Of a stretch of 64,000 bases of DNA, positions 3,681 to 30,485 are shown in pieces. Source of the stretch: Bacillota bacterium (lineage in GTDB: Bacteria; Bacillota; Dethiobacteria; DTU022); NCBI GenBank assembly GCA_019428945.1, contig JAHYJM010000002.1, positions 2,107 through 66,106 on the forward strand. Reading direction: 5' to 3'. How positions within the stretch are numbered: position 1 is the stretch's first letter; each line of letters begins with the position of its first letter. The notes beneath the pieces were generated by a model. It worked only from the letters and a program-made list of their open reading frames with translations, ran no database searches and was not told the DNA's origin. A program made the translations under genes and the position numbers.

Positions 3681-5414
3681 ATGGCTGGTAACTGGAGTGC
3701 CAAAGAACGGGATGATCTAATTCTCACAACCGCCGGCAGAAATTATGAAGTAATAATAATCGGCGGAGGAATAACCGGAGCAGGGATAGCCCGTGAGTGC
3801 GCTTTAAGAGGAATTTCGTTCTGCCTGCTTGATAAAAAAGATTTTGCTTTCGGCACTTCTTCACGATCATCGAAGCTTTTTCACGGCGGCCTACGCTACC
3901 TCGCCTCCGGTGAGCTTGGGCTGGTTCGTGAATCTACCAGTGAACGCAACTGGCTGCGCTGCCATTTTCCAAACATGGTAAGGCCACTCGGTTTTGTCTA
4001 TCCCTCTTACCAGAAAAGTAAATCAACACCCCTGAAAGTTCGTCTTGCTGTATTTCTGTATACTATCATTTCCGATTGTTTCAGCGAGTTTAAGAATTAC
4101 CGCAAGGGGCGAATTTTTAGCGCCTCGTTTATTGAAGAATTCGAACCTGCCATAACCCTGGAAGACCCTGAATTGGGGAAAATGACTATTGCCGGTTACT
4201 ATTATGATACAAATTGTGATGATGCAAGGGTAACCCTGGAAATTATCAAGGAAAGTATCAGCAAACCTAAAAACCCGTCATGCGCTCTTAATTATGCTGC
4301 TGTGAAAAAACTTATTAAAAATTCAACAGGCCGGATTACCGGTGTATCTGTGCAGGATGAATTTAGCGGAGAGTCTTTTGATATCAAAGGTTCCTGTGTG
4401 GTCTCTGCAGCGGGTATATGGACTGATGAAGTGCTGTCATCATTTGGTAAGTGGGATCCAAGAATCTACCCGACCAAGGGAGTGCACATTGTCGTACCGG
4501 CCGAAAGACTTGGCATTCGTAATGCTTTCAGCCTGGTTTCTCTTGATGACGGGCGCTTTTTTTTCATTCTGCACAGGGGGCGTGTTTCAGTGATAGGTAC
4601 CACGGACACTGCCTACTTTCCTGAATCGAAGAATCTGGACGAACCCTGGTGTACAAGGCATGATTGCGATTACCTTTTAAAAACAGTCAACCGGATTTTT
4701 CCTCATGCGCAGCTTAAAGATGATGACATAATCAGCGCTTATGCCGGAGTCAGGCCACTTATCAGGCAAGAGGACGCCAGACACGAGTCTGACGTATCAC
4801 GAAAACATGAAATCTTTCAGACGGAAGAGGGCGTGGTAGCAATAGCCGGAGGGAAATCAACAACTCACCGGCGTATGGCTGAAGACCTTCTATTCTACCT
4901 GGTTAAACATAACCTCATCAAAAGCTTTACAAAAGCGGAGTATGGCAAGCCTGGTTTTTCAAAACAACCTTTTAAAATCGCTTTAACCAGGAAGGAATTC
5001 GACCAGATCTTAAGTGTAAAAAACCTCTGGAATGCTGCCCACCCTGTGCAACTGGAATATTATTATACCCAGTTTGGACGCGGTGGGATTAAGATTCTTG
5101 AAGCGATACAAAACAGCCCCGATAAAGGCAAATCATTGCTGGAAGGATACCCGCACTGCAGAGCCGAAATTGAGTATATCCTTGACAATGAATTTGCCCC
5201 TAAACTGATCGATATTTTGTGCAGGCGCACCGAAGCGCAATGGACAATCTGGCATTACAAGCAGTCAGATCTTGCATCAGCTGTGGCAGAAATAATGGCT
5301 GACTACTACAGTTGGGATGACAGCAGAATGAAAACAGAAATTGACGAATACCTCAAGTATGTAAAAAACAACGTCCGTTTTCTTAATCAGATCAGCGGGT
5401 ATAGAAAAGAATAG
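3681..5414 (+). CDS. glpD: FAD-dependent glycerol-3-phosphate dehydrogenase/oxidase (GlpD/GlpO-like).
   Basis: 577 aa. The N-terminus YEVIIIGGGITGAGIARECALRGISFCLLDKKDFAFGTSSRSSKLFHGGLRYL matches the GlpD/GlpA FAD-binding signature, and a C-terminal alpha-helical domain is present. Confidence 0.85.
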   Translation: MAGNWSAKERDDLILTTAGRNYEVIIIGGGITGAGIARECALRGISFCLLDKKDFAFGTSSRSSKLFHGGLRYLASGELGLVRESTSERNWLRCHFPNMVRPLGFVYPSYQKSKSTPLKVRLAVFLYTIISDCFSEFKNYRKGRIFSASFIEEFEPAITLEDPELGKMTIAGYYYDTNCDDARVTLEIIKESISKPKNPSCALNYAAVKKLIKNSTGRITGVSVQDEFSGESFDIKGSCVVSAAGIWTDEVLSSFGKWDPRIYPTKGVHIVVPAERLGIRNAFSLVSLDDGRFFFILHRGRVSVIGTTDTAYFPESKNLDEPWCTRHDCDYLLKTVNRIFPHAQLKDDDIISAYAGVRPLIRQEDARHESDVSRKHEIFQTEEGVVAIAGGKSTTHRRMAEDLLFYLVKHNLIKSFTKAEYGKPGFSKQPFKIALTRKEFDQILSVKNLWNAAHPVQLEYYYTQFGRGGIKILEAIQNSPDKGKSLLEGYPHCRAEIEYILDNEFAPKLIDILCRRTEAQWTIWHYKQSDLASAVAEIMADYYSWDDSRMKTEIDEYLKYVKNNVRFLNQISGYRKE

Positions 5415-5612: not shown

Positions 5613-7409
5613 TTAACTATAAAGTTTTTCAATATCGTCAGCGTAAGTATCGATTACGTTACGACGTTTAAGCTTCATGGTCTGGGTAAGCATCCTGTTT
5701 TCAATCGTAAAATCTTCCCTTAAAAACAAGAATTTTTCTGGTATTTCATACCCTCCGAAAGTATTCCGCAAGTGAGCCTTAATCTCTTCTGTCATCATAT
5801 CTCTGAACTTTTCATTACTTAGTAAATCATCTGGATCGGCAGATACATTTTCTATAGCGGCCCAGCGGGCTGTTACCTCGAAATCGGGCAAAATCAGACA
5901 GATGTTATAGGGTTTTCCATCTCCATAAACCATGGCATTGGCAACATAAGGCATAAGCTTAACTTCCTCTTCAATTACTGCGGGAAAGACATACTTTCCA
6001 TTGGTAAGTTTGTATTGTTCCTTGATCCGTCCGGTAATCCATAAAAATCCGTCTTCATCAAATCTGCCCCGGTCACCGGTACGAAAACCACCATCGGCCA
6101 TGATCACTGCAGCAGTTTCTTCCGGTTTGTTGTGATAACCTTTCATGATATTCGGCCCGTAAACAATAATTTCACCATCTTCGGCTCCCTCTTCCGATAC
6201 GGTACGATCAATGACTACTTTTTGCCCGTCCAATACCTTGCCCACGCTGCCAATCCTCCAGTCGTTGGGGCTGTTCATTGTTACAGCCGGTGATGTTTCA
6301 GTAAGGCCGTAACAGTCGTAAATAGGAATACCAATATCGTAATAAAATTCTGCTATTTCTTTATTCATGGCGGCACTGGCGGTAAGAGCACCAGTAACTC
6401 TGCCACCCATCGCTTCACGTACTTTAGAAAAGACAATCTTATCAAGCAGTTTTTGTTTAAAATTGAGAAAACCGTTTGTTCTGCCTTCTTCCGCAAGTTC
6501 ACGCTTTTCCCTTGCTGTGGCACAGGCTAAGTCAAATAGCTTTTTCTTCAATCCACCGGCATCGCTCATTTTTAACTGTATGCCATCATAAATCTTGTTA
6601 AATACCCTTGGTACGGATATTAAGTATGTCGGCCTGATAATCTTTAAATCCTCAGCGAGAGTGGTGACGTCGCGCATAAATCCGAGTGACCCGCCAAACT
6701 GAATCCAGTTATTTAACTCGGCGCTCAGTGCATATGAATGGGCCCATGGCAACATGGATATGCCAACCTGGCTTTCAACCAGATCAGGGTATAGTCGATA
6801 CCCGGCACGTGAACAATAGGTCAGGTTGCCGTGTGTCAGAAGAACACCTTTAGGTTCGGCAGTGGTCCCTGATGTATAGATCAGCACTGCTACATCATCG
6901 AAAACAGGAATGAGAGGTTCAACCGGTGCTTCTTCGCCAATTTTCTCAAGTGCAGCCATACTGATTTCGCTGTCTGAATCAATAATAAATATCTTTTCCA
7001 GTGTTTCAATTTCATCGCAAAAGCCTTTGACTTCATCGTAAATATCCTGACTCGATACCATCAAGAATTTTACAGCGCTGTCCGCAATTATATATTTCCA
7101 GGTCTGGGTAAGTTCCTTCTCATACATTGGGATAAACCGGGCATTACGCCCATAGGTTGCATAGGCCAGGACTGCCCATTCAGGACGGTTTGGCGCTATT
7201 ATCCCAACAGCATCGTCCTTTCCTATGCCGAGTTTTGCCAGGCCTCCCCTGGCATTGTTTATTCGCTTGCCGATTTCACCATAACTAAGAGGGGCTATCC
7301 CTCCCTCGCTGTCATGCACCCAAAATAAAACATTATCGCTGAACTTTTTTTCGCTTTCAATCCACCAATCAACAAGGTTGTCAGGTTTTTCATACACCCA
7401 GGATGCCAT
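5613..7409 (-). CDS. Long-chain acyl-CoA synthetase (AMP-forming, FadD-like).
   Basis: 598 aa. The AMP-binding motif YTSGTTAEPKGVLLTHGNL, plus GYGLTET and a C-terminal lid, identify it. It is a paralog of the 7696-9495 gene. Confidence 0.85.
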   Translation of the reverse strand: MASWVYEKPDNLVDWWIESEKKFSDNVLFWVHDSEGGIAPLSYGEIGKRINNARGGLAKLGIGKDDAVGIIAPNRPEWAVLAYATYGRNARFIPMYEKELTQTWKYIIADSAVKFLMVSSQDIYDEVKGFCDEIETLEKIFIIDSDSEISMAALEKIGEEAPVEPLIPVFDDVAVLIYTSGTTAEPKGVLLTHGNLTYCSRAGYRLYPDLVESQVGISMLPWAHSYALSAELNNWIQFGGSLGFMRDVTTLAEDLKIIRPTYLISVPRVFNKIYDGIQLKMSDAGGLKKKLFDLACATAREKRELAEEGRTNGFLNFKQKLLDKIVFSKVREAMGGRVTGALTASAAMNKEIAEFYYDIGIPIYDCYGLTETSPAVTMNSPNDWRIGSVGKVLDGQKVVIDRTVSEEGAEDGEIIVYGPNIMKGYHNKPEETAAVIMADGGFRTGDRGRFDEDGFLWITGRIKEQYKLTNGKYVFPAVIEEEVKLMPYVANAMVYGDGKPYNICLILPDFEVTARWAAIENVSADPDDLLSNEKFRDMMTEEIKAHLRNTFGGYEIPEKFLFLREDFTIENRMLTQTMKLKRRNVIDTYADDIEKLYS

Positions 7410-7695: not shown

Positions 7696-9495
7696 TCAGT
7701 TATAGAGAGCAGCTATCTCTTTGGAATAGTTTTCGATGACTGCCCGTCTTTTTAATTTCATTGTCTGGGTCAGCATTTTATTGTCAACTGTAAAATCTTC
7801 ACCGATCAAGTAGAATTTCTCGGGAATTTCATAGCGCCCGAATGTTTCACTAAGATGATCTCTTATTTCATCCTCAAGGGTTTCTTTGAAATCTTCGTTC
7901 ATCAACAGATTAGGCGGATCATCTGAAACCCCTTTTTCTGCCGCCCAACGTGATGCTACTTCAAAATCAGGATAGATCAGGCACACATTATATGGCTTTC
8001 CGTCACCATAAACCATGGCATTTGCAACCTTGGGCAGTAGTTTTATTTCTTCCTCTATTGAAGCAGGAAAAACATATTTACCGTTCGAAAGCTTATACTG
8101 CTCTTTAATTCTGCCGGTAATCCAGAGAAAACCATCTTCATCAAGATGCCCACGATCGCCTGTGCGAAAACCACCGTCGGACATTATTACGGCTGCCGTC
8201 TCTTCCGGTTTATTATGGTAACCCTTCATCACATTGGGACCGTAAACAATTATTTCGCCATCATCGGCGCCTTCTTCAGAAACCGATTTATCAATTACCA
8301 CTTTCTGACCCTCCATAACTTTTCCCACACTGCCAATCTTCCAGGCTAGAGGGCTGTTCATACTTACACCAGGTGCTGTTTCCGTCAGCCCGTAACAGTC
8401 GTAGATTGAAATGCCGATATCAAAGAAAAACTCGGCTATTTCTTTGTTCATAACTGCACTTCCGGTCATAGCGCCGATAATCCTACCGCCAACAACTTCT
8501 CTTATCTTAGAAAAAACAATCTTGTCAAGTATGGCGTGCTTAACATTCACTGCCATGCTCATTTTTCCGGCATCGGCAAGCTCACGTTTTCTTTTTGCTG
8601 TAAGACAGGCGGCGTCAAATAATTTCTTTTTCATTCCACCTGCATCACTCATTCTCATCTGTATCACATCATAAACTTTATTAAAAACACGCGGCACGGA
8701 GACGAGAAAATGTGGTCTGATCAGCCGCATATCTTCGGCTAAAGTGCTGACATCCCGCATGAAACCAAAAGTGCCACCGAAATGTATCCATGATGTGAGC
8801 TCCGCTGTAATAGCATAAGAATGCGCCCAGGGCAGCATTGAAATACCAACCAGGCCTTCCCTTAGATCGGGAAAGAGCCTGAGACCTGTTAATGCACTGT
8901 ATGTAATGTTACCATGACTGAGTAAAACTCCTTTTGGATCAGCTGTCGTTCCGGAGGTATAGATTAATACAGCAATGTCGTCATAATTTGGTATTAGCGG
9001 TTCTACAGGATTTTTTTCACCATGCAATTCAAGTGATGCCAGGCTGTTTTCCCCATCTGATTCGATAATATATATCTTCTGAAGTGCAGGTATCTCTAAG
9101 GGAAAGTTTTTTACTTTTTCATATATTTCATGATTTGAGACGATGAGGAATTTCAACCCGCTATCCCGTATAATATATTTCCAGGTTTTTTCAAGTTCTT
9201 TTTCATACATGGGAACATATTTTGCATTCCTGCCAAAAACAGCAAAAGCAATTACCGCCCATTCAGGCCGGTTATTTGAAATAATTCCGACTGTATCGCC
9301 TTCTTTAACTCCATGCTCAGCCAATCCACCCCTGACATTGGCTATTCTGACACCAATATCTCCATAACTGATCGAATCAAGTCCGCCACGATTATTATGC
9401 ACTAAAAATAAGTCAGTATCCTGATATTTCTTTTCGCTTTCGATCCACCACTCTACAAGGTTGTCCGGTTTTTCGTAGCTCCACATATTTGCCAC
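7696..9495 (-). CDS. Long-chain acyl-CoA synthetase (AMP-forming), tandem paralog.
   Basis: 599 aa, YTSGTTADPKGVLLSHGNITY. It is colinear with 5613-7409 and roughly 65-70% identical along the whole length. Confidence 0.85.
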   Translation of the reverse strand: MANMWSYEKPDNLVEWWIESEKKYQDTDLFLVHNNRGGLDSISYGDIGVRIANVRGGLAEHGVKEGDTVGIISNNRPEWAVIAFAVFGRNAKYVPMYEKELEKTWKYIIRDSGLKFLIVSNHEIYEKVKNFPLEIPALQKIYIIESDGENSLASLELHGEKNPVEPLIPNYDDIAVLIYTSGTTADPKGVLLSHGNITYSALTGLRLFPDLREGLVGISMLPWAHSYAITAELTSWIHFGGTFGFMRDVSTLAEDMRLIRPHFLVSVPRVFNKVYDVIQMRMSDAGGMKKKLFDAACLTAKRKRELADAGKMSMAVNVKHAILDKIVFSKIREVVGGRIIGAMTGSAVMNKEIAEFFFDIGISIYDCYGLTETAPGVSMNSPLAWKIGSVGKVMEGQKVVIDKSVSEEGADDGEIIVYGPNVMKGYHNKPEETAAVIMSDGGFRTGDRGHLDEDGFLWITGRIKEQYKLSNGKYVFPASIEEEIKLLPKVANAMVYGDGKPYNVCLIYPDFEVASRWAAEKGVSDDPPNLLMNEDFKETLEDEIRDHLSETFGRYEIPEKFYLIGEDFTVDNKMLTQTMKLKRRAVIENYSKEIAALYN

Positions 9496-9628
9496 CCCCT
9501 CTTAGATTTTATGTGTGTCGATCTGAAGGCATTGCATATACTCGAACCATTATACATTATTTTCTGTATATTTTAAACATTAATTTTTTTGCCTCCCCTG
9601 TTCAATATAATTTATTTTACTAATAAGG

Positions 9629-9658
9629 TTGACATCACTCATAGACAATTAATATAAT
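9629..9658 (+). promoter_or_regulatory. Sigma-A-type promoter for the mod operon.
   Basis: TTGACA (9629-9634), an 18 bp spacer, then TATAAT (9653-9658). Confidence 0.45.
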
Positions 9659-9673
9659 TGATTTGTGCTAATG

Positions 9674-9737
9674 CCCTTTCCCTGCAGGAAAGGGTTCATT
9701 TACCCGGGCGTTATACTTATAAAAGTATAACGCCCGG
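9674..9737 (+). promoter_or_regulatory. Leader hairpin (9674-9694) followed by a perfect ModE-operator-like palindrome (9703-9737) upstream of the mod operon.
   Basis: The hairpin is ccctttcc-ctgca-ggaaaggg. The palindrome is cccgggCGTTATACTT-ataa-AAGTATAACGcccgg, which resembles the E. coli ModE site CGTTATAT..ATATAACG. Confidence 0.45.
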
Positions 9738-9780
9738 TAGGAACGAGACATGAAATAATAGATGAAGAAGGTGCTACCGG

Positions 9781-10815
9781 ATGAAAATGTACCAACTTGA
9801 AACAGAAAATTCAGTAGGTCGCCTATTATGCCATGACATTACAAAAATTGAAAAAGGCGTCTTCAAGGGAGCCCTGTTTAAAAAGGGACACCGGATTCGA
9901 AGTGAAGATGTCGAAACACTGCTTAAACTCGGGAAAAACCACATTTACATTCTCGAACTTGAAAAGGGTGATCTACACGAAGATGAAGCAGGCAGGCGAC
10001 TTGCCAGCGCCCTTGCAGGACCCGGCCTTGAAATATCTGATCCATCTGAAGGCCGTCTCAACCTGGTAGCGAGTCATGCGGGTTTGCTTAAAGTGGATGC
10101 CCAGCGCCTATTTAAAATTAACAGTGTACCAGATGTGGTTATTGCAACTCTTCACAACAACTCCCCGGTAGAAGCGGGTGAAAAAGTTACAGGAGCGAAA
10201 GTTATCCCTCTTGTTGTCAGCGAAACAACAGTTCAGCAGGTTGAAGAAATATGCTCGACCGGTGAGCCATTAATTCAGATATTGCCATACCGACAGTTTA
10301 AGATTGGCGGACTTATTACCGGCAGGGAAGTTTTTGAAGGAAGAATCCGAGACGGTTTTGCACCGGTTCTGGCAGAAAAAGCAGCTCGCTATAACCTTGA
10401 TGATCCTTTAATTCGTTTCTGCACAGATGATGCTGAACTAATTGCCGCTTCAATAGTAAAGCTGATTGCTTCAGGATGCGACATGATTATTATTACCGGG
10501 GGCATGTCGGTCGATCCTGATGATGTAACACCAACGGGCATTAAAATAACCGGTGCAGAAATTATTAAATATGGTGCCCCGGCCCTGCCGGGAGCAATGT
10601 TTCTCCTTGCTTATAAAGGTAGTATACCGGTGCTCGGTCTACCTGCCTGCGCAATGTATTATCAGAATACTGTGCTAGATATTATTTTCCCCCGCCTACT
10701 TTCCGGTCAAAAGGTGAGCTCAGGCGATATAGCCGCCCTGGGTCACGGCGGACTATGCCGCCAGTGCGAAACTTGTGTGTTTCCAAACTGCTCATTTGGC
10801 AAGGGAGGATTTTAG
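9781..10815 (+). CDS. Molybdopterin-binding (MoCF-biosynthesis, MoeA/MogA-type) domain protein with a Cys-rich C-terminal tail.
   Basis: 344 aa. MIIITGGMSVDPDDVTPTGI matches the MoaB/MogA/MoeA domain-3 signature. The C-terminus reads CRQCETCVFPNCSFGKGG. The gene is first in the operon with modABC. Confidence 0.6.
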   Translation: MKMYQLETENSVGRLLCHDITKIEKGVFKGALFKKGHRIRSEDVETLLKLGKNHIYILELEKGDLHEDEAGRRLASALAGPGLEISDPSEGRLNLVASHAGLLKVDAQRLFKINSVPDVVIATLHNNSPVEAGEKVTGAKVIPLVVSETTVQQVEEICSTGEPLIQILPYRQFKIGGLITGREVFEGRIRDGFAPVLAEKAARYNLDDPLIRFCTDDAELIAASIVKLIASGCDMIIITGGMSVDPDDVTPTGIKITGAEIIKYGAPALPGAMFLLAYKGSIPVLGLPACAMYYQNTVLDIIFPRLLSGQKVSSGDIAALGHGGLCRQCETCVFPNCSFGKGGF

Positions 10816-10886: not shown

Positions 10887-11675
10887 TTGAAAAGATTTCT
10901 ATATTACATAGTTTTTTTCATAGCGGCACTATACCTTCAGTCAGGTATGTACGGTTGCGCTAAGCCAGGTGATTTGATCACGATCAATGTTTCTGCCGCT
11001 GCCAGCCTAACCAATGCAATTACAGAAATAAATAAGCTATTCAAGGAAAACAACAACGATGTTGAAGTCCTGGCCCACTTTGCAGCCTCTGGCGACATTC
11101 AAACACAGATTGAAAACGGCGCGCCTATAGATGTTTTCATCTCTGCAGCAGCAAAACAGATGGATTCCCTTGATGCAAACGGTATGATCAAAACCGAAAC
11201 CCGCCGAAACTTATTGAGAAATAAAATTGTTTTGATTGTTCCCCGCAGCAGCAATTTGATTGTATCCGGTTTTGAAAGCCTGGTAAGTGACGAATTCAGA
11301 AGAATTTCCATCGGCGATCCGGATTTTGTACCAGCGGGCTACTACGCCCTCCAGACATTTGAGTTAACTGGAATTTCTTACGAAAAGATTCAATCAAAAT
11401 TATTATTGGCCGGCAATGTTATGCAGGTGCTTAGCTACGTAGAAAGTGGAGATGTTGACGCCGGAATTGTTTTCGCCTCGGATACAACTTCATCTGACGC
11501 AGTGAGAATTGTCGCAACTGCTCCAGACGAGATCAACAATAACATCATATATCCTATTGCTGTTATCGCTTCAAGTAAAAATATAGAGGTTTCAATCAGA
11601 TACATAGACTATTTGTATAGTGCAGCAGCCCGGGAGATTTTCGAAAAGCACGGATTCACTGTAATTACTGAGTAA
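10887..11675 (+). CDS. modA: Molybdate ABC transporter substrate-binding protein.
   Basis: 262 aa. There is a TTG start with an AAGGAG RBS and a signal peptide. ...VLAHFAASGDIQTQIENGAPIDVFISAA is a typical ModA sequence. Confidence 0.85.
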   Translation: MKRFLYYIVFFIAALYLQSGMYGCAKPGDLITINVSAAASLTNAITEINKLFKENNNDVEVLAHFAASGDIQTQIENGAPIDVFISAAAKQMDSLDANGMIKTETRRNLLRNKIVLIVPRSSNLIVSGFESLVSDEFRRISIGDPDFVPAGYYALQTFELTGISYEKIQSKLLLAGNVMQVLSYVESGDVDAGIVFASDTTSSDAVRIVATAPDEINNNIIYPIAVIASSKNIEVSIRYIDYLYSAAAREIFEKHGFTVITE

Positions 11676-11694: not shown

Positions 11695-12390
11695 ATGCTT
11701 GAAACCTTTTTATCACCATTGTATGTATCACTAAAAACTGTCCTGACTGCTACAGTAATAACCTTTTTCCTCGGGTTGGCAGCAGCACGGTGGATGTCAG
11801 GCTACACAGGTAAACTTAAAAGTATTATTGACGGGATATTTCTGTTACCCCTGGTGCTGCCACCAACAGTGGTTGGGTTCGGGCTGCTTCTGCTCTTCGG
11901 CAAAAACGGCCCATTCGGCAAGATTTTAGAGTTACTGGGAACCACAATTATATTTTCATGGCCTGCAACAGTTATAGCTGCAGTAATTGTATCCTTTCCT
12001 CTCATGTATATGTCTGCCCGGGGGGGATTTGAACAGGTTGATATCAATATCGAAAATGCCGCCCGCACTCTTGGCGCCGGAGAATGGCGAATCTTTTGGA
12101 CCGTTACCCTGCCGCTTTCCTGGCCGTCAATAATGGCAGCAACCGTTTTAGCCTTTGCCAGAGCTTTGGGCGAATTCGGGGCCACTTTAATGCTCGCTGG
12201 AAATATACCGGGGAAAACCACAACAATACCGGTCGCTATCTATTTTAAAATCCAGGCCGGTCATATGGGTGAAGCGTTTCTTTTAACTTTAATTGTTCTT
12301 GCTTTTGCTTTTGTATCACTTGCTTTACTGGCTTACTGGAAGAATAAAGCAAATAACAAGGGAGAGGGTATCACTCTTGCTGGAAATTAA
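11695..12390 (+). CDS. modB: Molybdate ABC transporter permease.
   Basis: 231 aa with 5-6 TM helices and the ABC permease EAA loop ...ARALGEFGATLMLAGNIPGKTTT. Confidence 0.85.
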   Translation: MLETFLSPLYVSLKTVLTATVITFFLGLAAARWMSGYTGKLKSIIDGIFLLPLVLPPTVVGFGLLLLFGKNGPFGKILELLGTTIIFSWPATVIAAVIVSFPLMYMSARGGFEQVDINIENAARTLGAGEWRIFWTVTLPLSWPSIMAATVLAFARALGEFGATLMLAGNIPGKTTTIPVAIYFKIQAGHMGEAFLLTLIVLAFAFVSLALLAYWKNKANNKGEGITLAGN

Positions 12391-13459
12391 TATAAAAAAA
12401 ACTCTACCCGGTTTTCAGCTTGATATTGACCTCTCTGTCAATCGGGAGATTATATCGATGCTTGGTCCTTCAGGCTCAGGTAAAACGATGACTTTACTCA
12501 GTATCGCCGGTTTGTTAAAACCCGACCAGGGTATAATTTGCCTTAACGGATGCACTCTTTTCTCTTCGCAAGATAATATTTTTTTACCTCCCCAAAAGAG
12601 AAAGATTGGGTTTGTTTTTCAGAACTACGCCCTTTTTCCTCACATGACTGTCGCCGATAATATTGCCTACGGCATGCAGGGAAAACCGAAAGAACAAATT
12701 AAGAAACGTGTGGATGATCTTCTTGAAATAATCCATATCCCTGCGCTTAAAAACCGCTACCCTTTTGAGCTTTCATCAGGGCAGCAGCAAAGAGTGGCTT
12801 TGGCCAGGGCAATTGCTCCTGAACCTGAAGCGCTGCTCTTAGATGAACCTTTTTCCGCCCTTGATACCTTCCGCAAAGAACGTCTTGAATTCGAGCTGCT
12901 TACACTTCAACAATATTACCTGGGCGATATACTTTTTGTCACTCATGATCTCACCCAGGGGTTTAAACTTGGAACACGCCTGGCTATATATGACAACGGT
13001 CGCATCGTTCAGTGTGATAACCGCGAAGAGGTCATTTCTTCACCGGTTAATCGAACCGCGGCAAGACTAACGGGTGTTAAAAACCTCTTTGATGGCATTG
13101 TCACCGGTTCTGACAATCATAGTGCTATTATCTATATACCGGAATTCGGCACCTCGCTGAAAACAACAGATTACTCTGCTGCAAAGCTATATGTTGATCA
13201 GATGGTAGTATTGGGCATCAGGCCTGAACATATAGAAATTTTCGAAGAGCCTACTGAAAACACTATACCCTGTCGGGAAGGCCACCAGGTTGTCGGAGTA
13301 ACAAACATACACTACTATTACTATGCAGAAAGAGATAATAATAAAAGATATCATCTGGAAAGCTGCAGACCCAGGCCGCTGTTACCACCCTGTTTTGAGG
13401 CCGGAAAGCCATGTTATCTTTATTTCCCGCCGGAACGAATTATAACCCTGGTAAATTAA
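12377..13459 (+). CDS. modC: Molybdate ABC transporter ATP-binding protein with a C-terminal Mop/TOBE-like domain.
   Basis: Walker A is LGPSGSGKTM, the signature is LSSGQQQRVALARA, and Walker B is LLLDEPFSALD. The ORF track starts it at 12293, inside modB. An in-frame TTG at 12377 overlaps the modB stop and gives a typical coupled start. Confidence 0.8.
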   Translation: MLEINIKKTLPGFQLDIDLSVNREIISMLGPSGSGKTMTLLSIAGLLKPDQGIICLNGCTLFSSQDNIFLPPQKRKIGFVFQNYALFPHMTVADNIAYGMQGKPKEQIKKRVDDLLEIIHIPALKNRYPFELSSGQQQRVALARAIAPEPEALLLDEPFSALDTFRKERLEFELLTLQQYYLGDILFVTHDLTQGFKLGTRLAIYDNGRIVQCDNREEVISSPVNRTAARLTGVKNLFDGIVTGSDNHSAIIYIPEFGTSLKTTDYSAAKLYVDQMVVLGIRPEHIEIFEEPTENTIPCREGHQVVGVTNIHYYYYAERDNNKRYHLESCRPRPLLPPCFEAGKPCYLYFPPERIITLVN

Positions 13460-13594: not shown

Positions 13595-14008
13595 CTAGAT
13601 AGTTTTTTTATTAACAGATTTTAATAAAGTAACCTGTGTAGGGCCTTCAACCGAATCTTTGACAGCTTCTTTAAATTCAAGATAGTGGTTGGTGTGCCGG
13701 TGCGTTTCTAATGCCTCGATACTGGTGTACTTTTCAAGGATATACAATTCTCCGGACTCCTCAAGCGGGATGTATGGTTCATACAGGAGGCATTCCTTTT
13801 CATTTTTACTGACCGCTTCAGCCATTTTTAGGCTTGCCTGTGCCACTTTCCCTTCCATACCCGGCTTAATTTTTAGCACTGCAACCAGAGCAATCACAAG
13901 ATCATCTCCCCGAATTAATTTGTTCTTAATTTCTCTCCAGGCAACACAAATTCCTGCCGTTGACATTATAGGTATAGCGGAGTATAATGAAACAAAAGAT
14001 TTAAACAA
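13595..14008 (-). CDS. Antibiotic-biosynthesis-monooxygenase (ABM) domain protein. The true start is probably the internal Met near 13966.
   Basis: LVIALVAVLKIKPGMEGKVAQASLKMAEAVSKNEKECLLYEPYIPLEESGELYILEKYTSIEALETHRHTNHYLEF is an ABM/Dabb ferredoxin-like fold signature. Confidence 0.6.
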   Translation of the reverse strand: MFKSFVSLYSAIPIMSTAGICVAWREIKNKLIRGDDLVIALVAVLKIKPGMEGKVAQASLKMAEAVSKNEKECLLYEPYIPLEESGELYILEKYTSIEALETHRHTNHYLEFKEAVKDSVEGPTQVTLLKSVNKKTI

Positions 14009-14050: not shown

Positions 14051-16171
14051 TTGGAGACCACTATTATGTTCGACTTGGGTCAATTTGTGGTCAGGTATCG
14101 CAAAACTATCCTGATCTTTTATTTAATTATATTAGTACCTGCAGTAATAAGTTACCTGGCAACCGGAGTTAATTATGACCTCGCCTCATACATGCCGGAG
14201 AATATGAATTCGCGCCGGGGAGAAAAAATTCTCGAAGAGGAATTTGATTTATCCGGCCTGGGGCTTCTGATGGCCAGGGATAAAAAAAACCATGAAATCG
14301 AAACATTGATTGTCAGTTTGATCAATGTTGGAGGTGTGGATGATGTTAAGTGGCTCGGAGATTACTCAGATCTATATGTACCAATCCAATTTACTGATCC
14401 TTTAATCCAGGCGCGGTTTGCAACCGAAGATACAGTATTGTTACAGATCCAATTTAGCGGCAATGCCCGCGCTCCTGAAACAACTGCCGCAGTAAGATCA
14501 ATACAGGAGTTGATCAGAAATGATGAAAACCTCTATTTTGGCGGAGAACCGCCCATTCTTACTGAAATGCAATCAGCTATAGATGAAGAAATTTTAGTTT
14601 ATACCGCAATAGCAGTAGTAATGATTCTCTTTGTTCTGACAATCTCAACATCACTTTACCTGGATCCGATTCTTTTCCTGCTGGCCGTCGGTATCGCGAT
14701 TATAATTAATATGGGCAGTAATATCTTCAGGGGAGAAATTTCTTTTCTCACAGCATCGATTGCAGCGGTTATGCAGTTAGGCATCTCTCTTGACTATGCA
14801 ATTTTCCTGATGCATCGACTTGAAGAGGAAAAACCAAAGTTTAAAAATATCGAAGAGGCCATGATGTCCACGGTCAATAAAACTTCAACCACTGTTGCGT
14901 CTAGCGCATTAACCACGATAGGCGGTTTTGCCGCTCTTATGGCTATGCAAAACGGGATTGGCAGTGATATGGGGTTTGTGCTGGGCAAGGGGATTGTGAT
15001 CAGCCTGATCGTAACATTGACACTGCTACCGGGAATGATAATATTTATCTACCCCTTCAGCAGACGATTTAAACATCCTATTCTGCTTCCCTCTTTCGGG
15101 AAGATATCGAAATACCTGGTAAAATACCGCTGGTTATTTCTGGTCGTATTTTTAATTATTGCAGTGCCGTCTTACCTGGGACAACAAAAAGTTGACTATT
15201 ACTATTCAAATGAAAACTACCTGCCTCGTAACTCTAAGGCGGTAGCTGATACAAATAGAATAATGAGTGAGTACGGGGCGGTCGATATCGCCTATGTGAT
15301 TATTCCAGACCATGGACGACGGGAAGAACGCAAATTAGTGGATCTGTTGAATAAAATTACCTTTGTTGATTCTGTAGTCGCAGTGTCCGAACAGGTTGAC
15401 CAGGCCCTGCCGGAAATAATTATTCCTGAAGAACTGATTAGCGAGTTCAGTGGGGGCAATTACCGCAACATAATAGTTTTCCTGTCTCCCGGAATCAGCG
15501 AAACCGAGTCATTTCAAACCATAGATCTTATCCGGCAAGTTACTAATACTTTGAACGAGGAATTTTACGTTACCGGACCTACAGCCATGACCCGGGATAT
15601 GGCTGCCCTGTCTCGGATAGACGCCGGACGGGTTGCCCTTGTTTCTTTAGCTGCAATCGGATTAATAGTCGGCATCAGTCTTAAATCATTATCACTACCG
15701 GTTGTACTGGTTATGGCAGTTCAACTTGCGATATGGATTAATATAAGTATTCTCTACTACCAGGACCAGGCTGTCTCTTCACTGACTCCAATTATAATTG
15801 GAGCGATTCAGCTCGGGGCAACAGTTGATTATGCGATTTTATATACATTAAGGTACAGGGAAAACTTGGAACTGCTCCCCGGCAGACTGAAGGCGGCAGT
15901 AAAAACAATTGAGGATACCGGTCGTTCAATTCTGACCAGTGCATTAATACTTTTTGCAGCCACTTTCAGCATATCAGTTATAGCAGGGATTAAAACTACC
16001 CGTGAAATGACCATGCTGATAGGACGAGGCGCGATGATCAGCATGATCGTAATGTTTACATTGTTGCCGGCGCTTCTTATCGTCTGCGACAAACTAATCG
16101 GCCAGTCAACAATTAAATGGCCCAACATAAAATCAAAGATGAGTAACTCTCCGGAGGGATTAGATCGATGA
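14051..16171 (+). CDS. MMPL/RND-superfamily membrane transporter. The start is probably the second Met at 14066.
   Basis: 706 aa with two 6-TM bundles, each followed by an extracytoplasmic domain. GISLDYAIFLMHRLEEE is MMPL-like. There is a GGAGACC RBS 7 nt upstream of the ATG at 14066. Confidence 0.8.
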   Translation: METTIMFDLGQFVVRYRKTILIFYLIILVPAVISYLATGVNYDLASYMPENMNSRRGEKILEEEFDLSGLGLLMARDKKNHEIETLIVSLINVGGVDDVKWLGDYSDLYVPIQFTDPLIQARFATEDTVLLQIQFSGNARAPETTAAVRSIQELIRNDENLYFGGEPPILTEMQSAIDEEILVYTAIAVVMILFVLTISTSLYLDPILFLLAVGIAIIINMGSNIFRGEISFLTASIAAVMQLGISLDYAIFLMHRLEEEKPKFKNIEEAMMSTVNKTSTTVASSALTTIGGFAALMAMQNGIGSDMGFVLGKGIVISLIVTLTLLPGMIIFIYPFSRRFKHPILLPSFGKISKYLVKYRWLFLVVFLIIAVPSYLGQQKVDYYYSNENYLPRNSKAVADTNRIMSEYGAVDIAYVIIPDHGRREERKLVDLLNKITFVDSVVAVSEQVDQALPEIIIPEELISEFSGGNYRNIIVFLSPGISETESFQTIDLIRQVTNTLNEEFYVTGPTAMTRDMAALSRIDAGRVALVSLAAIGLIVGISLKSLSLPVVLVMAVQLAIWINISILYYQDQAVSSLTPIIIGAIQLGATVDYAILYTLRYRENLELLPGRLKAAVKTIEDTGRSILTSALILFAATFSISVIAGIKTTREMTMLIGRGAMISMIVMFTLLPALLIVCDKLIGQSTIKWPNIKSKMSNSPEGLDR

Positions 16172-18108
16172 AAAATAAAATCTACTATTCAATAGCGATA
16201 ATAATAACTGTGATGTTTGCGCTGGGATCTGCAGCTTATTCAGTAGTTCCTGATCAGGGCGCTTCTCAGGAGGGTAGTTACAGACCCGCTTTTCTCGCAG
16301 AAAATGTTTTACCTGAAAATCCCAATGAAGATGAAAGCCCGGCAGTAAAAAATGAAACTGTATACGTTTTGCTTGATCATTATGGTGCAGTACTTGATCA
16401 GAGAATAGTTAACCGGATTTACGGACAGGAGATACCCGGGGCAGATTCAGTTTTCGATTACGGAGTTTATACATCCGTTGAAAATATGATTACCGGAGAT
16501 GAACCTGCTATAATTGATAACAGGATCATATGGGATAGTCAGCTGCTTAAAAATGAAGATATCTACTATGAGGGGACAATTAAACAGCAGCTGCCGGTAG
16601 ATATAACAATCACTTATTATCTAGACGGCATAGAGATCGAACCGGAAAACCTTGCCGGCAAATCAGGAAGACTCGAATTATTAATTAAATTTAAGAACAA
16701 CCTGAGCTATAATGAACCGCTAAGTTATTATGATTATGAAGGCAACCTGGTGACAAAACAAGATGATAACTACGTCCCACTTCTTGTGCAGGGAACCCTT
16801 GATGCAGATCTGAACCTATATTCCGAAATTGATCCCGGAAATGGCATGAGCCTGATAATGGGTCAGACAGCAAGCATAAATTTCATGGTTTTTCCTTACC
16901 CCGAAGATGAGATCATAATCAGCATGGATGGAATAGATATAGAACTTGAGAGAATAACTTTTATGATTATTCCTCAAATGCCGGCAGTGCCGGATGTGGA
17001 TATTGAAGATATGCTCATTCAAATGCTTGAAGGGATAAGGATGTTCAGTGAAGGGTTAGGGGAACTTTCAGCAGGAGCAGATCGTATCTTGCAGGGATTG
17101 ATTAGATTTAATGATGAAAGCAAACGCATGACTTCTGGTTTTGATGACCTCTACCCGGTTATAGAAGAATATAAGGCTCAGCGTGAAAATTTGCTGGGTA
17201 TGCTTGACTCAAGGGATATTGAAGAAATGCTGAACTCAATTGACAACCTGGAATTATTGCTTGCAGAAATTAAAAATATACCTGATGCCAGTGAACTGTC
17301 TTCTGAACTTAACCAGGCTGCAGCGGAAACAGAAGAACTGGGGATACAGCTGAATGAACTTAACCAAATATTTTCCGGGCTGGAAAAATCATCACGTCAG
17401 ATATATGTTGAAGCAGAAAAACTAATAAAAGAGAATGAGCCAGGCACTCCACTTCATGAATTAGGCCTCTTGTTAATAGTCCGTGAAGAAGAATTGCAGA
17501 GTGCATCCTATCAGAATTACCTGGCCGGGCAAAGTTTCTCTGCTCTGGAGAATAACCTCGATTCATTCCAGCAAAACTGGCTGAATAATTATATGCCGGG
17601 GTTAAACGCACTGGAAGAACTGAACGTCTTGTTAAAGGCTGGCGACATTCCCGACCGAATTAAGAGTTTCCGGCAAGAAATATCAAAGCTCAATGAATAT
17701 CTTGAAATGGCAGACCAATTTATTATTGAATCAGACTCAATGCTGGCCGAAATTGAAATGCTTCCGGAAGCCTTAGATCAAATGGAAGCAGGACAAAAAC
17801 GTTTAACTGACGGTATTAATGCCCTGCGTTCAGAAGGTTTAAAAGCGATGGAGGAAGGATTAATAGAAGGGATTAATGAATCCAGGGCAGGAAAGGCAAA
17901 AATTGAATTGATGAAAAAACTGGCGGATGATTACCGCTCATATGCTGATAATGAACATAACCGGTCAAGTGAAGTCCGCTTTATTATCCAAACTCCCAGG
18001 ATAGAAATTGTAAATATTGACAGTCCCGTTAGTGTGGATAATAATCAAGATTCCTCCGAAAGATGGACAGAAAATATTTTGGCAAAATTTGTTAATCTAT
18101 TCCAATAA
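16168..18108 (+). CDS. Membrane-anchored extracytoplasmic protein with a long coiled-coil, of unknown function. It is the partner of the MMPL transporter.
   Basis: 646 aa. The ATG overlaps the stop of the MMPL gene (ATGA). It has a single N-terminal TM (IYYSIAIIITVMFALGSAAY), a beta-rich middle region, then about 300 aa of helical repeats (LSAGADRILQGLIRFNDES..., LNELNQIFSGLEKSS...) reminiscent of YhgE/Pip/EsaA-type repeats. Confidence 0.5.
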   Translation: MKNKIYYSIAIIITVMFALGSAAYSVVPDQGASQEGSYRPAFLAENVLPENPNEDESPAVKNETVYVLLDHYGAVLDQRIVNRIYGQEIPGADSVFDYGVYTSVENMITGDEPAIIDNRIIWDSQLLKNEDIYYEGTIKQQLPVDITITYYLDGIEIEPENLAGKSGRLELLIKFKNNLSYNEPLSYYDYEGNLVTKQDDNYVPLLVQGTLDADLNLYSEIDPGNGMSLIMGQTASINFMVFPYPEDEIIISMDGIDIELERITFMIIPQMPAVPDVDIEDMLIQMLEGIRMFSEGLGELSAGADRILQGLIRFNDESKRMTSGFDDLYPVIEEYKAQRENLLGMLDSRDIEEMLNSIDNLELLLAEIKNIPDASELSSELNQAAAETEELGIQLNELNQIFSGLEKSSRQIYVEAEKLIKENEPGTPLHELGLLLIVREEELQSASYQNYLAGQSFSALENNLDSFQQNWLNNYMPGLNALEELNVLLKAGDIPDRIKSFRQEISKLNEYLEMADQFIIESDSMLAEIEMLPEALDQMEAGQKRLTDGINALRSEGLKAMEEGLIEGINESRAGKAKIELMKKLADDYRSYADNEHNRSSEVRFIIQTPRIEIVNIDSPVSVDNNQDSSERWTENILAKFVNLFQ

Positions 18109-29136: not shown

Positions 29137-30231
29137 TTACCTGGCGTTGTCAAAAGCTTTCGCGACTGCTGCCTGATAGCTCTCTACAGTAATCGTTACG
29201 GAAGAGGTTAATTCCGGCACATCGGGAACGCTCTGGTGAGCATCGTCAACCACTTTAACCTGGAGGCCCAAGACTTCGTCTACAGTCTTTCCTACCATCC
29301 AGTCTTCCAAAACAACCATTTGTTCATACCATTCCATTTCGATTTCAGAAACACGTTTCATGCCGTAATCATCGCCCAGCTGAACTTTGGTTTTCGGCGC
29401 TTCTGCGCGATCGGAAGTTACCTGGCCGTCAGCATCATAATTAACCCTGATCTGGGCATTATCAATCAATACACCGACGATCACACCGTTGGAATCAAAA
29501 GCAACAGCAGCCATCGTGTTGTCCATCTGTGCCATGGGAAGAATATCATTATCTTCATCAAGGCCTCTGGATTTGGCAATTGAAAGATCTGTGCCTAAAC
29601 CGGCTGTTACTGCGTTTTCAACTTCGACAGAGTTATTATAAGCACTTTCAACTGCTGCGATGTAATCTTCAACGGTGATTGTTACCAGCGAAGTAAGTTC
29701 CGGAATATCAGGGACGTTCTGATGAGCATCGTCAACAACCTTCACCTGCAGGCTCTTGATTTCATCTACAGTCTGACCGATCATCCAGCTTTCAAATTCA
29801 GCCATCTGCTCATACCATTCCATTTCGATTTCAGAAACACGTTTCATACCATAATCATCGCCAAGTTCGGCTTTGGTCAGAACCGGAGCAGTGAGATCTG
29901 TTGCAACCTGCATTTCCTCATCAAATGCAACTCTTGTCTGAGCATTGTTAATCGATACACTGACAACCCTGCCTTCAGCATCAAAAAGCACTGCTGCCAT
30001 AACTACATCGGCCTGGGCCTGAGCGGTAACATCATCGCCTGCATCTCTCGACTTGGCGATAGATGTAACTACTCCAAGACCTAATCTTGATGATCCTGTT
30101 TCAACAACTTCTTCTTCCGGGGTTTCTTCCGGAGCTTCTTCCGGGGCTTCCCCGGCGGGCGCATCCCCGCAGCCGGCTATCATAACCAGAGCCAGGGTAA
30201 GCACCAGGGCTAACCATAATACTTTTTTCAT
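29137..30231 (-). CDS. Lipoprotein built from two tandem duplicated domains of about 160 aa each, of unknown function.
   Basis: 364 aa. The lipobox is MIAGC, followed by a Pro/Glu-rich linker. The two repeats share ...LGDDYGMKRVSEIEMEWYEQM...VKVVDDAHQ(N/S)VPD(I/V)PELTS.VTITVE.Y.AAV. The DNA repeats (about 29160-29620 and 29640-30100) are nearly identical over stretches such as ccattccatttcgatttcagaaacacgtttcat. Confidence 0.6.
   Translation of the reverse strand: MKKVLWLALVLTLALVMIAGCGDAPAGEAPEEAPEETPEEEVVETGSSRLGLGVVTSIAKSRDAGDDVTAQAQADVVMAAVLFDAEGRVVSVSINNAQTRVAFDEEMQVATDLTAPVLTKAELGDDYGMKRVSEIEMEWYEQMAEFESWMIGQTVDEIKSLQVKVVDDAHQNVPDIPELTSLVTITVEDYIAAVESAYNNSVEVENAVTAGLGTDLSIAKSRGLDEDNDILPMAQMDNTMAAVAFDSNGVIVGVLIDNAQIRVNYDADGQVTSDRAEAPKTKVQLGDDYGMKRVSEIEMEWYEQMVVLEDWMVGKTVDEVLGLQVKVVDDAHQSVPDVPELTSSVTITVESYQAAVAKAFDNAR
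29150..30110. repeat. Intragenic tandem duplication, two units of about 480 bp, inside the lipoprotein gene.
   Basis: The antisense ORFs 29236-29583 and 29722-30084 translate to near-identical peptides, MSIVNHFNLEAQDF.. and MSIVNNLHLQALDF... This reflects the direct repeat. Confidence 0.7.
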
Positions 30232-30409: not shown

Positions 30410-30438
30410 TTGACAGATGTTCATTTATATCCTATTAT
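30410..30438 (+). promoter_or_regulatory. Sigma-A-type promoter upstream of the ferredoxin gene.
   Basis: TTGACA (30410-30415), a 17 bp spacer, then TATTAT(AAT). A GAGGTG RBS sits 8 nt before the ATG at 30486. Confidence 0.45.
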
Positions 30439-30485
30439 TATAATATTGGAATATAAGATATGAATTTGTTACGAGGTGCAACCAG

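Follow-up and report, generated by a model that had tools for sequence, protein, structure and literature searches.

The operator of the Escherichia coli modABC operon, CGTTATATTGTCGCCTACATAACG (read from NC_000913.3), precedes a molybdate ABC (ATP-binding cassette)-transporter operon, overlaps the transcription start, and the operon is adjoined by a gene for full-length ModE with two Mop domains. In Desulfovibrio, a single-domain ModE_N gene lies beside molybdenum (Mo)-transport genes; the sensing mechanism of these DNA-binding-domain-only regulators is unclear, and their predicted site is CGGTCACG-N14-CGTGACCG (PMC545781). In the archaeon Methanosarcina acetivorans, ModE has a reduced Mop content and shows no molybdate dependence in vitro (PMC12327845); its sites are at a long distance 5′ of genes for nitrogenase and transporters, with no description of an associated hairpin. 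Here we analyzed a 64,000-nt stretch of DNA (hereafter, the window; positions are counted from its first letter) from a Bacillota bacterium (Dethiobacteria; DTU022), taken from positions 2,107 to 66,106 of contig JAHYJM010000002.1 (assembly GCA_019428945.1, forward strand), and focused on the leader of its mod operon, which carries a palindrome with a ModE-type core.

The half-sites and the 10-bp gap of this core are the same as in E. coli, and both operators precede a molybdate ABC-transporter operon. The M. acetivorans motif also shares its inverted-repeat core and spacing (GTTATAC-N8-GTATAAC in the window), whereas the Desulfovibrio site is quite unlike it. In other respects the locus departs from the E. 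coli arrangement: the box begins at about +44 of the predicted transcript, behind a phased hairpin, no ModE gene is found in the 64 kb, and relatives of the window encode ModE proteins consisting of the DNA-binding domain only. The best overall explanation, to which we assign a probability of roughly 0.8, is a ModE-type operator that would act as a roadblock to transcription elongation together with a coupled hairpin.

A ModE-type operator core within a perfect palindrome

The divergent intergenic region upstream of the operon is 285 nt long (9496-9780) and holds a promoter, a GC-rich hairpin (P1) and the palindrome. The palindrome (9704-9737) is composed of two 15-nt arms (9704-9718 and 9723-9737) that are 100% complementary around a 4-nt centre. 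An initial annotation of this DNA had described it as a perfect 35-bp repeat; the perfect 15-nt arms stand, but the length is 34 bp, with the extra 5′ C at 9703 left unpaired. The core CGTTATAC-TTATAAAA-GTATAACG (CGTTATA-N10-TATAACG) occupies 9709-9732, and the full palindrome is made up of this core and a lineage-specific extension (CCGGG/CCCGG). The resemblance to the enterobacterial ModE operator noted in that annotation is borne out, as the E. coli modA operator reads CGTTATA-N10-CATAACG, with the same half-site and the same 10-bp gap. The core shows no mismatch to the ModE-box pattern and fits both the published E. coli consensus (atCGnTATATA-N6-TATATAnCGat; PMC545781) and the archaeal ModE motif validated by electrophoretic mobility shift assay (RTTATGT-N8-RCATAAY; PMC12327845). 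Judged by sequence, the core is very probably a ModE-type DNA operator, and the palindrome is a member of the known ModE-box class, its regulator being encoded outside the window.

If the palindrome had no part in regulation and were a chance or selfish repeat, its single copy in the window would be expected; the only other match to the pattern, when up to three mismatches were allowed, lies at 51892, has three mismatches and is at chance level. Against this, no other perfect hairpin-type inverted repeat in the 64 kb is as long as the palindrome, with 0.03 repeats having perfect arms of at least 12 bp expected per first-order Markov resampling of the window. Moreover, the position of the box is conserved in relatives down to about 50% protein identity, which effectively refutes a chance origin, and we give that idea next to no weight. 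No other Mo-related genes were found in the window.

To place the box among relatives, loci with relatives of the first gene of the operon were gathered from genomes, from metagenomes and by exact-protein look-ups. Among the matches listed, the metagenome relatives were mostly 45-50% identical, and the close clade was gathered protein by protein. In L001-L004, L007, L008, L018 and L028, the orthologous gene is preceded at 45-85 nt by a box with 0-2 mismatches. The later loci L162-L180 also have the box, that of L166 with three mismatches, and box-bearing relatives extend down to about 50% protein identity. Recurrence of the palindrome in front of Mo-related genes, a point raised in the initial annotation, is seen for its core, before the orthologs of the first gene. 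In 910 kb of loci we counted 16 sites with at most two mismatches, vs. about three expected by base-probability arithmetic. The flanks CCGGG/CCCGG and the 4-nt centre of the window palindrome vary among relatives, and a flank extension is missing from all of them except L004. In that locus (5920-5955) and in the window (CCGGG/CCCGG) the operator palindrome has been extended independently by 5-6 bp, the L004 extension (AGGTAG/CTACCT) being unrelated in sequence.

Two other repeats are recorded here as separate observations. A box-like sequence with three mismatches, TATTATGTTTTTAAAAGTATAACG, lies at 1106-1129 of L181, just 5′ of hisG; this locus also encodes a ModE_N protein, and the match may be due to chance. 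In the window, the intergenic region at 30425-30456 contains an AT-rich, imperfect 20-nt palindrome (85% complementary).

A DNA site rather than an RNA structure

The region had initially been considered to be either a DNA operator or a structured 5′ leader, for instance an attenuator resembling a riboswitch for the molybdenum or tungsten cofactor (Moco/Wco). The Moco/Wco riboswitch (RF01055) is likewise a structured leader upstream of Mo-related genes. A structured RNA of this kind, or a target of an RNA-binding protein, in which the likeness to a ModE box would be coincidental, could draw on three observations: the leader fold scores z = -4.5 relative to shuffles, P1 behaves as sense-strand RNA (see below), and the window and L004 have lengthened the palindrome independently by 5-6 bp with different sequences. 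However, the leader folds into two simple hairpins only, and these account for the z value.

Results of the Rfam searches gave no support to an RNA family. The whole window returned no family match at gathering thresholds, and the Moco_RNA_motif model (RF01055), run as the initial annotation had suggested, gave no match; in 9400-9900 at E ≤ 10 the only matches were chance similarities of microRNA precursors to the bare hairpin. Of the 13 pairs of the palindrome, 8 are invariant across the ten distinct leaders that were aligned, while arm positions 7 and 8 are unpaired in three of the ten sequences, with the same A...C asymmetry in E. coli. Covariation in the palindrome was not above that of shuffled alignments, as the observed values were reached by 113-316 of 500 shuffles. 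As RNA, the box has a predicted stability of between -2.8 and -16.8 kcal/mol, often with the greater stability on the antisense strand. The arms therefore keep their sequence and not merely their pairing, and conserved sequence combined with relaxed pairing indicates a protein-binding DNA site and not an RNA stem. In addition, the same box occurs without P1 at promoters and beside ModE_N genes, both in relatives and in E. coli. A riboswitch or other RNA target is in our estimation highly improbable; the leader differs from RF01055 in having neither a covariance-model match nor supporting covariation. The DNA-operator alternative, in turn, draws strong support from the half-site and spacing identical to those of E. 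coli, from the conservation in relatives and from the co-occurrence with ModE_N genes.

The operator is displaced from the promoter in one of two leader architectures

The σA-type promoter TTGACA-18-TATAAT is present where it had been placed initially, on the plus strand at 9629-9658 (-35 element, 9629-9634; -10 element, 9653-9658), and matches the consensus at 12 of 12 positions. It is one of just two such matches in the first 20 kb, and it predicts a transcription start at about 9665. By this prediction the palindrome lies, as had been proposed, downstream of the promoter: 50 nt lie between the -10 element and the core box, which covers about +44 to +67 of the transcript. The palindrome ends 43 nt before the ATG at 9781, in agreement with the earlier estimate of about 45 bp, and the core box is 48 nt upstream of the first gene. 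A ribosome-binding site, GAAGGTG (9767-9773, plus strand), was read from the sequence 7 nt 5′ of this ATG; the segment AAGAAGGTG at this site is conserved in the alignment of relatives. The second 12/12 promoter, TTGACA-17-TATAAT at 13960-13988, is situated just 5′ of an MMPL-family transporter gene (14051-16171) and overlaps the 5′ end of an antisense ABM monooxygenase gene (13595-14008, minus strand).

A consensus promoter of the form TTGACA-16/18-TATAAT is kept in all close relatives (69-80% protein identity), and the leaders of this clade fall into two types. In type A (L007, L166, L167, L177 and L179) the box is found 8-11 nt after the consensus -10 element, hence overlapping the start, and no hairpin is present. 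In type B, which comprises the window, L001, L002, L003, L004, L162, L163, L170, L173 and L175, the consensus promoter is followed by a gap of 8-33 nt, the GC-rich hairpin, exactly 14 nt and then the box, so that the box lies about 45-70 nt downstream of the promoter. The hairpin is therefore present solely where the operator is displaced from the promoter. An overlap of operator and promoter in the manner of E. coli modA is seen in the type A relatives and not in the window. In a neighbor-joining tree of poor resolution, type A is basal and the window falls with the other type B leaders in a derived clade; L166 (type A), however, is nested within type B. A stable hairpin followed by GGG-N14-CGTTAT has no further occurrence in the collected loci, which amount to about 1.5 Mb.

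Three of the type A loci (L166, L177 and L179) are syntenic with the window: each has one or more AMP-binding genes upstream, and L166 also has ABM and MMPL genes downstream. In the window, the upstream genes are two tandem paralogs (acyl-CoA-synthetase-like) that occupy 5613-7409 and 7696-9495 of the minus strand and diverge from the mod operon; such a pair is also upstream in L177 and L179, and one gene of this type is visible in L166. Given this shared neighborhood, it is chiefly the leader that sets the window apart from its syntenic relatives.

The P1 hairpin and its fixed distance from the operator

P1 (9674-9694, plus strand) consists of the arms CCCTTTCC (9674-9681) and GGAAAGGG (9687-9694) and a 5-nt loop, the 5′ arm being C/U-rich and the 3′ arm G/A-rich. 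It had been placed at roughly +1 to +25 of the transcript; we locate it at about +9 to +30 of the predicted one. The hairpin is predicted to be stable in all ten distinct type B leaders (-11 to -20 kcal/mol), with loops that in full-length folds vary in sequence and measure 3-8 nt. As differing loop lengths cause MAFFT to mis-register the arms, pairs were tabulated from individual folds. These stems contain five U·G wobbles and not a single C·A mismatch, and in L001 one compensatory change from C-G to A-U is seen. The wobbles would be mismatches on the other strand, which indicates that the element is selected as sense-strand RNA; by this sequence criterion, P1 probably acts as nascent RNA. 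The initial annotation had treated the hairpin as an accessory to the palindrome. Its presence is confirmed, but it turns out to be the more unusual part of the leader, conserved and strictly phased to the operator.

The linker between P1 and the operator (9695-9708, plus strand) is exactly 14 nt long, and this length is the same in the ten distinct hairpin-bearing leaders. It is also found in L171, where a weaker CCCC/GGGG hairpin stands 14 nt from the box. The segments around the linker are free in length: the gap between promoter and hairpin varies from 8 to 33 nt, the loop from 3 to 8 nt and the distance from box to start codon from 43 to 51 nt. The linker sequence itself is poorly conserved except at A2 (9 of 11), T6 (11 of 11) and A8 (11 of 11).

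We also looked at P1 as an intrinsic terminator, defined as a GC-rich hairpin followed directly by a U-tract of 7-9 nt. The hairpin has the form of a terminator hairpin, while the A/U-rich tail behind it is a poor U-tract, with 3-6 U in its first 9 nt across members, and the terminator scan made no call on the plus strand. By eye, no antiterminator alternative to P1 was seen in minimum free energy or centroid folds, which were not searched systematically. Three other roles were considered and dropped. Termination of the upstream gene by P1 was rejected, as this gene is divergent in the window and the minus strand has no T-tract. A promoter of the extracytoplasmic function type (GGAAAG-N16-CGTT) is unsupported in L170, L171 and L175 and leaves the complementary 5′ arm unexplained. 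A leader peptide following the Shine-Dalgarno-like GGAAAGGGG finds an ATG in just 2 of 11 sequences.

The first six bases of the linker form an A/T-rich, -10-like hexamer, and this raises the question of tandem promoters: the hexamer would be the -10 element of a second, ModE-controlled promoter, with the hairpin insulating it from upstream transcripts or terminating them, or else it would cause sigma-dependent pausing. The consensus xATAwT, with A2 in 9 and T6 in all of 11 sequences, agrees with such a reading. So does the MAFFT alignment, which sets the hexamer against TATAAT of the hairpin-less promoters, and the spacing of 8 nt between the end of the hexamer and the box matches that of the real -10 element in type A (8-11 nt). 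On the other hand, no -35-like hexamer is found at 16-18 nt, where the C-rich hairpin arm lies at a variable distance, and the hexamer of the window (TTCATT) is a poor -10 match that lacks the essential A2. On these same grounds a σA promoter built on the hexamer was set aside as the principal explanation and retained as a rival one. Furthermore, in most members the U-tract is too poor for efficient termination, and a conserved 12/12 promoter devoted to a dead-end RNA of 30-70 nt seems wasteful. Tandem promoters or pausing are therefore considered unlikely.

A second possibility retains the operator and separates it from P1. The hairpin would be a 5′-proximal stem-loop stabilizing the mRNA, or a leftover of the displacement of the promoter, and the repressor would work unaided by it. 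Stabilizers at the 5′ end of Firmicute mRNAs sit similarly near the transcription start, and in several relatives the hairpin begins 2-9 nt from the predicted start. The poor U-tract and a geometry that departs from that of classical hairpin release are also in line with an independent hairpin. Yet this explanation has to accommodate the 14-nt distance in ten of ten distinct sequences and in L171 while the neighboring segments are free in length, as well as the restriction of the hairpin to leaders with a displaced operator. We regard an independent hairpin as a possible but clearly weaker account. Functional coupling of P1 to the operator is preferred here, albeit at about even odds when taken as a claim of its own.

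A candidate regulator

The initial annotation had stated that no ModE-like regulator is encoded in the window, and our searches agree with it. ModE, ModE_N and Mop were searched for across the 64 kb, and nothing was detected either by phmmer with E. coli ModE or with hidden Markov models on the six-frame translation; the ModE_N model was iterated and built from 12-13 ModE_N-like proteins.

Relatives offer a candidate. Beside the MoeA-like gene, several of them encode short proteins without a Mop domain that match the ModE DNA-binding domain best (TIGR00637, E about 1e-17). Such ModE_N-only genes adjoin the MoeA-like gene in L008, L028, L171, L181 and L005. In L008 and L028 the MoeA-like gene directly follows the ModE_N-only gene, and the box falls in the space between them. 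The cluster of L171, L181 and L005 (72-73% identical) runs MoeA-like, xdhC and modE_N, and in L171 the box sits before it. Across 153 distant loci, a ModE_N gene was found in 8 of 13 that bear a box vs. 12 of 140 that do not (Fisher p = 1.8e-5).

The positions of ModE_N-only genes without Mop or TOBE domains were recorded in L008 (5563-5913), L028 (981-1376), L039 (5627-6001), L070 (5513-6001), L171 (5884-6360), L181 (4920-5309) and L005 (2013-2483). In many unrelated lineages, a gene of this type lies beside a MoeA-like gene or in one operon with it.

The lack of modE near the operon is thus not anomalous, because close relatives have a ModE_N gene within a paralogous MoeA-like/xdhC cluster, and its product can work in trans. 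The simplest reading is a trans-acting regulator encoded elsewhere in the genome, and the repressor is most likely a short protein consisting of the ModE DNA-binding domain only. Going by the frequent adjacency of the genes, such domain-poor regulators may depend on the MoeA-like protein for sensing metal or cofactor.

Genes of the mod operon

The first gene (9781-10815, plus strand) encodes a divergent MoeA-like molybdopterin-binding protein of 344 aa. Its sole Pfam match is MoCF_biosynth (PF00994; 3.9e-17, residues 178-306); MoeA_N and MoeA_C gave no Pfam match, and the NCBIfam models of MoeA type remained far below their cut-offs. For the structure model (predicted local distance difference test score, 84), the top 30 Foldseek matches in the PDB were MoeA, gephyrin E and Cnx1E (E about 1e-8), with template-modeling scores of only about 0.33 and identities of 12-16%. 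The designation "MoeA-like" given initially accordingly fits loosely as regards the fold, but is not matched by the MoeA_N and MoeA_C families. At the C-terminus, a motif of four cysteines (C326, C329, C332 and C337; GGLCRRCxxCxFPxCSFGKG, residues 320-341) is invariant in 25 homologs. The tail carrying it is the sole low-confidence part of the model. The motif may be a metal or iron-sulfur site.

The modABC genes reported to follow were recovered as well. The product of modA (10887-11675, plus strand), a molybdate-binding protein, matches TIGR01256 at 1.1e-55, and that of modB (11695-12390, plus strand), a permease, matches TIGR02141 at 4e-74, both above the cut-off. They are followed on the same strand by a modC-like ABC ATPase gene (12377-13459) with ABC_tran and OB_MalK domains, for which both the modC and the WtpC models fall below their cut-offs. 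The listed open reading frame (ORF) spans 12293-13459; from the sequence and from orthologs of 360 aa, the likely start is the TTG at 12377, after GGGAGAGGG.

Most close relatives have in this operon an extra gene of 249-255 aa, missing from the operon of the window, whose product matches no Pfam family or weakly DUF364. It follows either the MoeA-like gene or the transporter genes and was located at 3390-4139 in L162, 4486-5235 in L163, 3709-4458 in L173 and 4039-4788 in both L177 and L179, with further sites in L166 (6986-7753), L173 (6939-7669, cut by the locus end) and L175 (7402-8163). In L167, L173 and L175, a different transporter stands behind the same leader; its genes, for a binding protein with a PBP_like match, an ATPase of 211 aa and a permease of 258 aa, are arranged as A-C-B. 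The unit of leader and MoeA-like gene is thus combined with different oxyanion transporters, possibly of tungstate type. Elsewhere in the window, two ORFs match no Pfam family at E ≤ 1e-4, one at 16168-18108 (646 aa) and one at 29137-30231 (364 aa).

Proposed mechanism

When metal is sufficient, a dimer of a ModE-family repressor responsive to molybdate or tungstate would fill both half-sites and shut the MoeA-like/modABC operon. With the box beginning at about +44 of the predicted transcript, initiation from the consensus promoter is beyond the reach of the repressor, which should act as an elongation roadblock. We consider it somewhat more probable than the opposite that the operator acts after initiation, and roadblock action is plausible from the layout of the leader. 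The bound repressor would halt the polymerase with the RNA 3′ end at, or just beyond, the G-rich arm of P1. P1 and the A/U-rich linker would then decide the fate of the halted complex, which could be release (attenuation) or a stable hold from which transcription can restart. A bacterial polymerase covers about 14 nt of duplex ahead of its active site, and work of Pavco and Steege with EcoRI Q111 reportedly found a stall distance of about 14 bp for the bacterial enzyme. The hairpin occurs solely with a displaced operator and is locked at 14 nt from it, approximately the front of the polymerase; joint action of the two elements is proposed on this basis.

Several points speak against this mechanism. 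A halt about 14 bp before the box leaves the 3′ arm of P1 inside the RNA-DNA hybrid. In classical hairpin release, about 8 nt separate the hairpin from the 3′ end; release would therefore require the polymerase to approach the box more closely or to move, and the U-tract after the hairpin is poor (3-6 U in the first 9 nt). Both promoter and start are predictions, and a weaker start may exist nearer the box. With a -10-like hexamer in the linker, the fixed spacing could partly reflect a second promoter or a sigma-dependent pause. The hairpin is known from 10-11 distinct sequences of one clade. Finally, there is no ModE-like gene within the 64-kb window for the operator of this organism, and the ModE_N-only proteins of relatives lack the molybdate-binding Mop domains.

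In a more speculative form, which we consider less likely than not, the leader would be a composite module for the control of elongation. It would consist of a ModE-type repressor and a nascent hairpin placed one front-footprint (14 nt) upstream, with metal-dependent release or parking of the polymerase. A further possibility is that the DNA-binding-domain-only regulator senses metal or cofactor via the co-encoded MoeA-like protein with its Cys motif, and not via Mop.

The pairing of ModE and its box is hereby extended to an uncultured Firmicute lineage, which is useful for annotation and unsurprising, as the operator is already known in kind. The novelty lies in the phased arrangement of hairpin and operator. 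The clade presents a natural experiment, in which the same operator is either located on the promoter without a hairpin or displaced from it with a hairpin at 14 nt. If the displaced operator needs the hairpin, this would be a compact, transplantable way to make a DNA-bound repressor an efficient elongation block; in current work, roadblock efficiency is explained mostly by Mfd, Rho and polymerase traffic.

Comparison with known roadblock systems

Among Firmicutes, CcpA at cre sites downstream of promoters and CodY at internal sites act as roadblock repressors. The window resembles these systems in having a repressor site downstream of the start, with elongation being blocked, in its case by prediction. 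A phased upstream RNA hairpin is, to our knowledge, no part of the CcpA and CodY roadblocks. The general mechanism of roadblock repression has been reviewed (PMC10310618), and nascent hairpins were reported to stabilize and position bacterial polymerases that have collided (PMC13082048).

The same order of an RNA hairpin, an A/T-rich tract and a DNA-bound protein site is found in the terminator of RNA polymerase I (Reb1/Nsi1; PMC12366685). There, Reb1 bound to DNA stops the polymerase 15 bp short of the Reb1 site, but the transcript is released by the upstream RNA hairpin, aided by a T-rich tract, and not by the roadblock (PMC12366685). That system is eukaryotic, and its hairpin lies 20 nt behind the halted 3′ end and about 35 nt before the protein site; termination there requires deep backtracking. 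With a distance of 14 nt the window has another geometry, and the parallel is one of analogy only. Should the composite module prove true, it would represent a bacterial counterpart of roadblock-plus-hairpin termination.

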